A DNA stretch of 30,137 nt, from assembly GCF_003334355.1 (NCBI RefSeq), contig NZ_QOWP01000040.1. One strand, written 5' to 3'. The position numbers and the translations under genes were made by a program. Of this stretch, positions 6,371-7,493 are shown piece by piece (position 1 is the first letter of the stretch; the number at the start of each line of letters is the position of its first letter). The notes beneath the pieces were generated by a model. The model was given only the letters and a program-made list of their open reading frames with translations. It was not told where the DNA came from and did no database searches. The stretch is from Escherichia coli. Its GTDB lineage: Bacteria > Pseudomonadota > Gammaproteobacteria > Enterobacterales > Enterobacteriaceae.

Positions 6371-6790
6371 ATGAAACGGAACACGAAAATTGCCCTGGTA
6401 ATGATGGCGCTTTCAGCAATGGCGATGGGATCGACATCTGCATTTGCTCACGGCGGACACGGTATGTGGCAGCAAAATGCCGCGCCTTTGACCAGCGAAC
6501 AACAGACAGCGTGGCAGAAAATCCATAATGACTTTTACGCTCAAAGCAGCGCACTGCAACAGCAACTGGTGACGAAGCGTTATGAATACAATGCCCTGTT
6601 AGCCGCGAACCCACCGGATAGCAGCAAAATTAACGCGGTCGCCAAAGAGATGGAGAATTTGCGTCAGTCGTTAGATGAGTTACGGGTGAAACGAGATATC
6701 GCGATGGCTGAAGCGGGTATTCCGCGCGGTACCGGAATGGGTTACGGCGGCTGCGGTGGTGGCGGTCATATGGGTATGGGCCACTGGTAA
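6371..6790 (+). CDS. zraP: Periplasmic zinc-stress chaperone/repressor ZraP (signal peptide, Gly/His/Met-rich C-terminus)
   Basis: In-frame ATG at 6371 preceded by GGAGG; product starts MKRNTKIALVMMALSAMAMGSTSAFA (signal peptide). The ORF-track start at 6230 lies inside the enhancer and is not credible. Confidence 0.9.
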   Translation: MKRNTKIALVMMALSAMAMGSTSAFAHGGHGMWQQNAAPLTSEQQTAWQKIHNDFYAQSSALQQQLVTKRYEYNALLAANPPDSSKINAVAKEMENLRQSLDELRVKRDIAMAEAGIPRGTGMGYGGCGGGGHMGMGHW

Positions 6791-6791
6791 A

Positions 6792-7493
6792 TCAGAACGT
6801 TTTCTCGTTGGGTTGCCAGCGACAGAAATCAGAGTTTGCCACCAACAGTAATTGCGAACCTTCGGGCGCTTCCAGCCATGCCACGCTGACATCAACAGAA
6901 GAGCGGCTCTGGCGGCGCTCGATATGCGCTATCGCCTGCGAATCTAAATCAGGTTTAATGGTTTGCCCTTCGCAGGTGGTCACGGTCTGTTCCATCGCAT
7001 GCCAGCGCCCCTGGCGCAGCACGACTCTCCCCTGACGTAAGGCATCGCTAATCTGGCGGATCTGATCAGCACGATAACGGTATAAATCGATTTGGTCGTT
7101 AGAAAGCTGCTGCTTTTCCCCATCGGATTCACGTTGCATAAAGCTCAGATCACCGCGATCGTCAAAACGCGCGCGAATATTCACCGGCGGTTTGCTGTAA
7201 ACATTGATATTGATGAGCGTGAGGTTATCGCCCTGCCAGCGATACTCTCGCGTCGTGGTATCGCCACTGCGCCACGGGCTAAACACGGCAAGCAGATGCA
7301 CATTATCGCCGCTGTCTTTTCGCCAGATGCGTACCGCGCCCTGGTCTTCAGCAAATCCACTGGCGGTAAAGGGAGGAAGTGAAGAGTTGTGGCTACAGGC
7401 AGTGAGAAACAGCGCACCTGCCAGCATCAATGATCGACGCCAGAAAGACAAAAGGGGTGAAACCACCCCTTCGTTAAAACTGTTCACTGCCAC
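6792..7493 (-). CDS. yjaH: DUF1481-family putative lipoprotein
   Basis: 233-aa ORF with hydrophobic N-terminal region and lipobox-like LTAC; position between hupA and zraP matches E. coli gene order. Exact start codon uncertain. Confidence 0.85.
   Translation of the reverse strand: MAVNSFNEGVVSPLLSFWRRSLMLAGALFLTACSHNSSLPPFTASGFAEDQGAVRIWRKDSGDNVHLLAVFSPWRSGDTTTREYRWQGDNLTLININVYSKPPVNIRARFDDRGDLSFMQRESDGEKQQLSNDQIDLYRYRADQIRQISDALRQGRVVLRQGRWHAMEQTVTTCEGQTIKPDLDSQAIAHIERRQSRSSVDVSVAWLEAPEGSQLLLVANSDFCRWQPNEKTF

Follow-up and report, generated by a model that had tools for sequence, protein, structure and literature searches.

Genes and features of the zraP/yjaH junction

The window, i.e., the whole stretch of 30,137 nt of Escherichia coli DNA that was analyzed, is oriented opposite to K-12 MG1655 and carries zraP, zraS and zraR as a three-gene block lying exactly between the convergent genes yjaH and purD (Table 1). 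Gene coordinates follow the RefSeq annotation of strain PSS-12, which is 100% identical to the window over the 1.8 kb tested. ZraP functions as a chaperone in the periplasm. YjaH is a predicted lipoprotein of the DUF1481 type with the lipobox LTAC; its homologues number in the hundreds and carry the Pfam domain PF07356.

At the border between zraP and yjaH the plus strand reads ...CAC TGG TAA a TCA GAA CGT..., such that the two stop codons face each other across a single base. These convergent stops with their 1-bp gap, already described in the initial annotation, are found alike in the sequence, the ORF list, RefSeq and K-12 MG1655, where the layout is identical (yjaH 4200566..4201261, zraP 4201263..4201688). 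If overlapping convergent coding sequences are defined by at least one shared nucleotide, zraP/yjaH in Escherichia falls outside this class (gap +1).

The opposite border of the block, purD/zraR, constitutes a second tight junction in the window. It had been claimed to lack room for a terminator as well, and its coding sequences indeed overlap by 4 bp. This overlap corresponds to K-12 positions 4204642–4204645; E. coli, Salmonella, Citrobacter and Pluralibacter have it in identical form.

Table 1. Features around the zraP/yjaH junction, in window coordinates.
Feature	Position	Strand	Remarks
purD coding sequence	2149–3438	+	
zraR coding sequence	3435–4760	-	
purD/zraR overlap	3435–3438		4 bp, CTAA
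zraPSR block	3435–6790		between yjaH and purD
zraS	4757–6133	-	RefSeq annotation
zraP sigma-54 promoter	6316–6341	+	tcgtTGGCACGGAAGATGCAATaccc; GG/GC elements within 6320–6335; string identical to the promoter listed in PMC2831329
zraP coding sequence	6371–6790	+	139 aa, stop TAA 6788–6790; RefSeq, ORF list; Pfam PF13801 on orthologues
Candidate Rho loading tract	6630–6791	-	RNA directly 3' of the yjaH stop, ~160 nt; C/G 1.9–2.3 in 78-nt windows
Published Rho termination region, transferred from K-12 4201402	6657	-	135 nt past the yjaH stop
Gly/Met/His tail of ZraP	6725–6787	+	
Single spacer base	6791		between both stop codons
Stretch that zraP read-through would enter	6791–7300	+	antisense to yjaH; no hairpin with U-tract
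yjaH coding sequence	6792–7487	-	231 aa, GTG start at 7487, TGA as complement of 6792–6794; RefSeq
hupA intrinsic terminator	7441–7472	-	GAAGGGGTGGTTTCACCCCTTTTGTCTTTCTG; terminator scan; inside the annotated yjaH 5' end
hupA coding sequence (HU-alpha)	7500–7772	-	upstream source of transcription into yjaH; ORF list, RefSeq
yjaG	7959–8549	-	RefSeq annotation

Conservation of the two stop codons

A junction this tight might be an annotation artefact, with one of the two genes ending earlier or not being real. This explanation draws on the facts that yjaH is uncharacterized and that its annotated 5' end contains the terminator of hupA. Against it, both proteins keep their C-termini and the same end residue across genera: YjaH ends in EKTF or AKTF and ZraP in GHW, GNW or GRW, at conserved positions in Salmonella, Citrobacter and Pluralibacter. 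Moreover, hundreds of YjaH homologues share a Pfam domain, and PGAP and the K-12 curators agree on the coordinates. We regard the artefact as essentially refuted. The use of a more upstream stop by yjaH, which the initial annotation had named as a finding that would overturn its reading, is at odds with the conserved C-terminus.

At the nucleotide level, 5421 out of 5426 complete E. coli genomes contain the 50-mer that spans the junction, 5337 of them in identical form. The TGA-T-TTA arrangement is common to E. albertii, E. whittamii and one further Escherichia species. Within the genus, the junction is kept despite in-frame indels just upstream in the Gly/Met/His tail of ZraP, where changes of 6 bp and 12 bp among E. 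coli strains give rise to proteins of 139, 141 and 143 aa. Between genera, length and composition of this tail differ, while the last residues G-H/N/R-W are retained.

Among the E. coli genomes, 98% have the junction 50-mer without any change, compared with 84–85% for three control 50-mers. Such uniformity could hint at constraint, and one common SNP would explain the difference. In E. albertii, the final 30 nt of yjaH differ by four substitutions. For these two reasons, we do not claim sequence constraint at the junction.

Frequency of tight convergent junctions

For an estimate of how common such junctions are, convergent CDS pairs were tabulated by eye in six evenly spread 50-kb stretches (300 kb) of the window's own genome. 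Seven of the 45 pairs had a gap of at most 1 bp, and all seven were overlaps: vsr/yedA (-12), yncO/ydcD (-86), ybiO/rlmF (-4), ybhR/ybhQ (-39), kgtP/yfiM (-4), trmN/nadB (-16), and tadA/mltF (-4). An eighth tight pair, yddH/pptA, is separated by 3 bp. E. coli is reported to have 704 convergent pairs; at about one in six, as in the sample, the species should hold roughly a hundred such junctions. Thus, the 1-bp gap between zraP and yjaH is not unusual, as it does not exceed chance expectation.

The overlapping pairs purD/zraR, ybiO/rlmF, kgtP/yfiM and tadA/mltF resemble zraP/yjaH in being tight tail-to-tail arrangements without terminator space. In contrast to them, zraP and yjaH of E. coli share no base, while the pair of Klebsiella pneumoniae overlaps by 25 nt.

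Search for terminators and RNA structure at the junction

A scan for consensus intrinsic terminators between 5900 and 8100 returned the hupA terminator alone, at minus-strand positions 7472–7451, and none at the zraP/yjaH junction on either strand. A permissive search for hairpins with T-rich tails, extending about 500 nt each way from the junction, revealed no terminator-like hairpin. Folds of 200 nt of read-through RNA were equal to those of shuffled sequences on each strand (z-scores 0.01 and -0.11), and Rfam, applied at the gathering threshold, assigned no family to the junction. The claim that there is no room for a terminator between the stops thus extends to the surroundings, where scans and folds show no intrinsic terminator either. 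Consequently, each transcript must extend into the opposite gene.

Elsewhere in the window, Rfam matched a TPP riboswitch (11774–11874, plus strand, 74.8 bits) and P26 (26143–26204, minus strand, 71.1 bits), both unrelated to the junction.

Rho-dependent termination downstream of yjaH

Transcription leaving yjaH can be followed in the data of Adams et al. 2021 (eLife, PMC7815308), who performed DirectRNA-seq in the presence and absence of the Rho inhibitor bicyclomycin. Supplementary file 2 of that study lists, among 1078 Rho termination regions, one at K-12 4201402(+), i.e., in yjaH sense, which is classed as 'antisense zraP'. Untreated cells gave 444 reads in the 800 nt preceding it and 40 in the 800 nt that follow; with bicyclomycin, the counts were 294 and 456 (PMC7815308). 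The resulting Rho score is 17.2 (p=9e-85); the loci validated by reporter fusions and northern blots in the same study have scores of 2.0–3.7 (PMC7815308). These data refer to K-12 in LB only, and 4201402 is the best-scoring position in 800-nt windows rather than a mapped termination site.

In K-12, the yjaH stop ends 141 nt before position 4201402; in the window, the distance is 135 nt, owing to the 6-bp indel in the ZraP tail. Read-through downstream of yjaH is thus bicyclomycin-sensitive in the published reads, the behavior by which a Rho-dependent terminator is recognized. While Rho is active, about 9% of the upstream yjaH-sense signal is found in the 800 nt downstream, and therefore yjaH read-through does not normally reach the zraP promoter. 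The Term-seq tables of the same study contain no stable 3' end for yjaH (PMC7815308), as is expected of an RNA that is terminated by Rho and trimmed by exonucleases.

These observations bear on the earlier claim that yjaH and hupA transcripts enter zraP. In yjaH sense, the overlap is demonstrated by the published Rho region, but Rho cuts the read-through short. Termination ahead of the overlap, which would have contradicted the claim, is not what the K-12 data show in this direction, the Rho region being situated 141 nt beyond the stop.

The RNA directly downstream of the yjaH stop has a composition that fits Rho loading. Among all windows taken from the two strands of the 30-kb stretch, its C-rich, G-poor tract belongs to the top ~1%, and no run of this kind on the minus strand is longer. 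A Rho-dependent terminator is expected to have about 80 nt or more of such poorly structured, untranslated RNA ahead of the termination zone; the tract extends over ~160 nt from the stop codon, and its fold is no stabler than shuffles. From this composition we infer a rut-like Rho loading region. The C-richness arises because this RNA is the complement of the GGN-rich codons of the glycine-rich ZraP tail. The Salmonella ZraP tail is equally C-rich in antisense, though Salmonella has a hairpin in its spacer. The tract is therefore a by-product of protein sequence and no evidence of adaptation.

With the known Rho termination regions (PMC7815308), the RNA 3' of yjaH shares the C-rich, G-poor composition of rut type. 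Unlike Rho termination in intergenic 3' UTRs, the zone described here resides inside the coding sequence of the neighbor, zraP, and its rut site is predicted by composition. A weaker Rho termination region (score 4.3) is listed antisense to purD at K-12 4204911 (PMC7815308), 266 nt past the zraR stop.

Transcription from zraP into yjaH

In the opposite direction, the RNA downstream of the zraP TAA is mildly C-rich (C/G 1.15–1.5). Untranslated antisense RNA is, as a general rule, a substrate of Rho in E. coli; for this reason, zraP read-through is expected to be ended by Rho or by decay within a few hundred nt. Neither 3' ends nor Rho regions are recorded on the zraP-sense strand inside yjaH in LB and M63, conditions under which zraP is uninduced (PMC7815308).

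The presence of the pair in the ExcludonFinder core excludome (PMC12288877) speaks indirectly for zraP transcripts that reach yjaH. In a macroarray experiment with double-stranded PCR products as probes, yjaH (-2.3) and zraP (-3.8) went down together with metal and envelope stress genes. Such a joint fall is what would be expected if the yjaH spot detects zraP read-through, a circumstantial point given that these probes cannot separate the strands.

The hupA terminator and the supply of yjaH transcripts

Upstream of the junction, the hupA terminator is located in the annotated 5' coding region of yjaH (7441–7487; K-12 4200566–4200612), at approximately codons 6–13 as counted from the GTG at 7487. 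In K-12, position 4200605 is the dominant regional 3' end in Term-seq under all three growth conditions, with an intrinsic score of 5.76 and a Rho score of 0.74 (PMC7815308); this 3' end falls 39 nt into the ORF annotated as yjaH. Across 13 loci, ranging from Escherichia to Sodalis, the terminator hairpin GAAGGGGY-loop-RCCCCTTTTGTCT is kept through compensatory changes in its stem, always within the annotated yjaH 5' end. It limits the hupA transcription that reaches yjaH and the junction. Nevertheless, yjaH-sense RNA is present despite this terminator, as the 444 reads counted over the 800 nt leading up to the Rho region document (PMC7815308).

Judged by this layout, either yjaH would be translated only from transcripts that read through the hupA terminator, or its true start may lie downstream. 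The next ATG, at 7427, would leave the lipoprotein signal peptide without a charged N-region.

Several database entries of YjaH (P0002, P0003, P0004, P0018, P0023, P0027, and P0102) measure 248–311 aa instead of the usual 231, with query coverages of 77–91%; P0002, an entry of 300 aa, carries HU domains. The extra length probably stems from gene calls that fuse yjaH with hupA or that run past the stop into zraP antisense.

Variation of the junction across genera

For a comparison of the locus, scanning the genome collection with YjaH yielded nine loci, and others were retrieved via protein hits (Salmonella, Citrobacter, Klebsiella, Enterobacter, Kosakonia, and Pluralibacter). The distance between yjaH and the next convergent gene, as well as the identity of this gene, varies considerably (Table 2).

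Table 2. Gene converging on yjaH and intervening spacer in Escherichia and its relatives.
Taxon	Next convergent gene	Gap (bp)	Spacer content
All Escherichia	zraP	+1	none
Pluralibacter lignolyticus	zraP	+12	
Salmonella enterica	zraP	+41	10-bp-stem hairpin
Citrobacter	zraP	+70	REP-like pair
Klebsiella pneumoniae	zraP	-25	usual yjaH stop lost, 9 further codons antisense to zraP
Enterobacter ludwigii	purD	+43	GC hairpin
C. koseri	purD	+74	REP-like palindrome
Kosakonia	purD	+87	GC-rich palindromes
Leclercia, Siccibacter, Cedecea	purD	about 35–50	strong hairpin

In Enterobacter ludwigii, C. koseri, Kosakonia, Leclercia, Siccibacter and Cedecea, zraPSR is absent and yjaH converges directly on purD, across a spacer of 35–87 bp that contains a hairpin or REP element. 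This patchy distribution implies repeated loss or gain of zraPSR, as far as the compared loci can tell. By the same comparison, the purD border of the block appears fixed and tight, and the yjaH border evolutionarily labile. The spacing between yjaH and zraP varies from -25 to +70 bp in other genera, which argues that its exact value is tolerated rather than selected.

Convergent spacers with hairpins or REP elements, which act as bidirectional terminators or 3' stabilizers, fill the equivalent position in the relatives, those of Enterobacter and Leclercia being GC hairpins, and REP elements occur in ~30% of convergent spacers of E. coli. In contrast, the Escherichia yjaH/zraP junction is devoid of any such element, its spacer being one base.

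In the K. pneumoniae-type locus (L016), the nine extra YjaH codons (…EKASNLYQWFMPI, followed by the stop) produce a CDS overlap of 25 nt at 5705–5729. At the same locus, zraR appears split into products of 403 aa and 39 aa.

Interpretation of the junction

The pair has been recorded before as an excludon, i.e., as convergent neighbors with overlapping transcripts. ExcludonFinder (Sanmartin et al., NAR 2025, PMC12288877) lists both yjaH-zraP and zraR-purD in its Table 1, which comprises 165 convergent excludons of E. coli MG1655; the core excludome consists of transcription units overlapping in at least 50% of 58 transcriptomes (PMC12288877). Literature searches on yjaH, and on zraP with antisense or Rho, found no study of the yjaH-zraP pair. 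All eight convergent pairs of our sample with a gap of at most 3 bp are likewise contained in the ExcludonFinder list, because their geometry forces overlap. In distinction to functional excludons, the list rests on overlap of RNA-seq coverage, and at a gap of 1 bp such overlap is a geometric necessity.

We consider it likely that zraP and yjaH form an ordinary tail-to-tail junction without an intergenic terminator, in which the transcripts of either gene are stopped within the opposite one. The published reads show that yjaH-sense transcripts, supplied by read-through of the hupA terminator, by a promoter of yjaH, or by both, pass the TGA and are ended by Rho about 135–140 nt into zraP antisense. 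Release of the ribosome at the yjaH stop would expose the C-rich, G-poor RNA and thereby offer a good Rho loading site. From the other side, zraP transcripts driven by sigma-54 and ZraR would run untranslated into yjaH antisense, where Rho or RNA decay would end them in the space of a few hundred nt. The 3' ends of the two transcription units thus overlap, and the pair is a convergent 'excludon' in the published sense: the two genes face each other on opposite strands, and overlap of their transcripts is documented by the core excludome and by yjaH-sense RNA extending ~140 nt into zraP. To all appearances, the arrangement is a historical by-product that is tolerated, and no designed switch. 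With the zraPSR block placed between yjaH and purD, Escherichia simply lacks the spacer adjoining yjaH.

Alternatively, the excludon might be functional, with zraP, when induced by zinc or stress, repressing yjaH and hupA-yjaH read-through repressing zraP, such that expression becomes mutually exclusive by RNA polymerase collision or by RNase III cleavage of the double-stranded 3' overlap. The place of the pair in the core list and the geometrically unavoidable overlap of the 3' ends agree with this idea, as do the envelope or periplasmic nature of both products (suggested for YjaH by its lipobox) and the 17-fold rise of zraP antisense coverage upon Rho inhibition. With Rho active, however, antisense coverage of zraP is confined to its last ~140 nt, and on the macroarray, which cannot separate strands, the two genes changed in the same direction and not in opposite ones. 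In addition, the spacing is not conserved, being replaced elsewhere by distances of -25 to +70 bp with hairpins or REPs, and many relatives have yjaH without zraP. Taken together, we consider a functional excludon unlikely. Still more doubtful is a genus-specific, Rho-gated form of it, in which loss of the spacer in Escherichia would have left Rho as the sole barrier between hupA-yjaH transcription and zraP, with the codons of the glycine tail doubling as loading site.

Termination by head-on collision at an overlapping bidirectional terminator, instead of by Rho, is reported from SEnd-seq as a frequent, Rho-independent mode of termination where E. coli genes converge. This mechanism needs an RNA stem-loop in the overlap, and scans and folds found none at the junction; furthermore, yjaH-sense read-through is strongly bicyclomycin-sensitive, and zraP and yjaH are weakly expressed, so that collisions would be rare. 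We therefore regard it as very improbable here.

Significance

The junction as such is already known, with the pair in a published excludon list and the Rho region in a published table, and it reveals nothing new in kind. If the doubtful Rho-gated arrangement were true, lower Rho activity or perturbed translation of yjaH would lead to antisense RNA across zraP and damp the chaperone, while zinc-induced zraP read-through would silence the YjaH lipoprotein; transcription of a nucleoid-protein gene would then be linked to the Zra envelope stress response. On the preferred reading, that of an ordinary junction, the locus is a clean example of a gene block, zraPSR, that is placed between convergent genes and lacks terminator space on both sides. 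It also illustrates Rho handling read-through, apparently by way of a C-rich tract that exists only by virtue of the neighbor's glycine-rich tail. Should the overlap couple the expression of yjaH and zraP, the picture of the Zra envelope stress response would gain a small detail.
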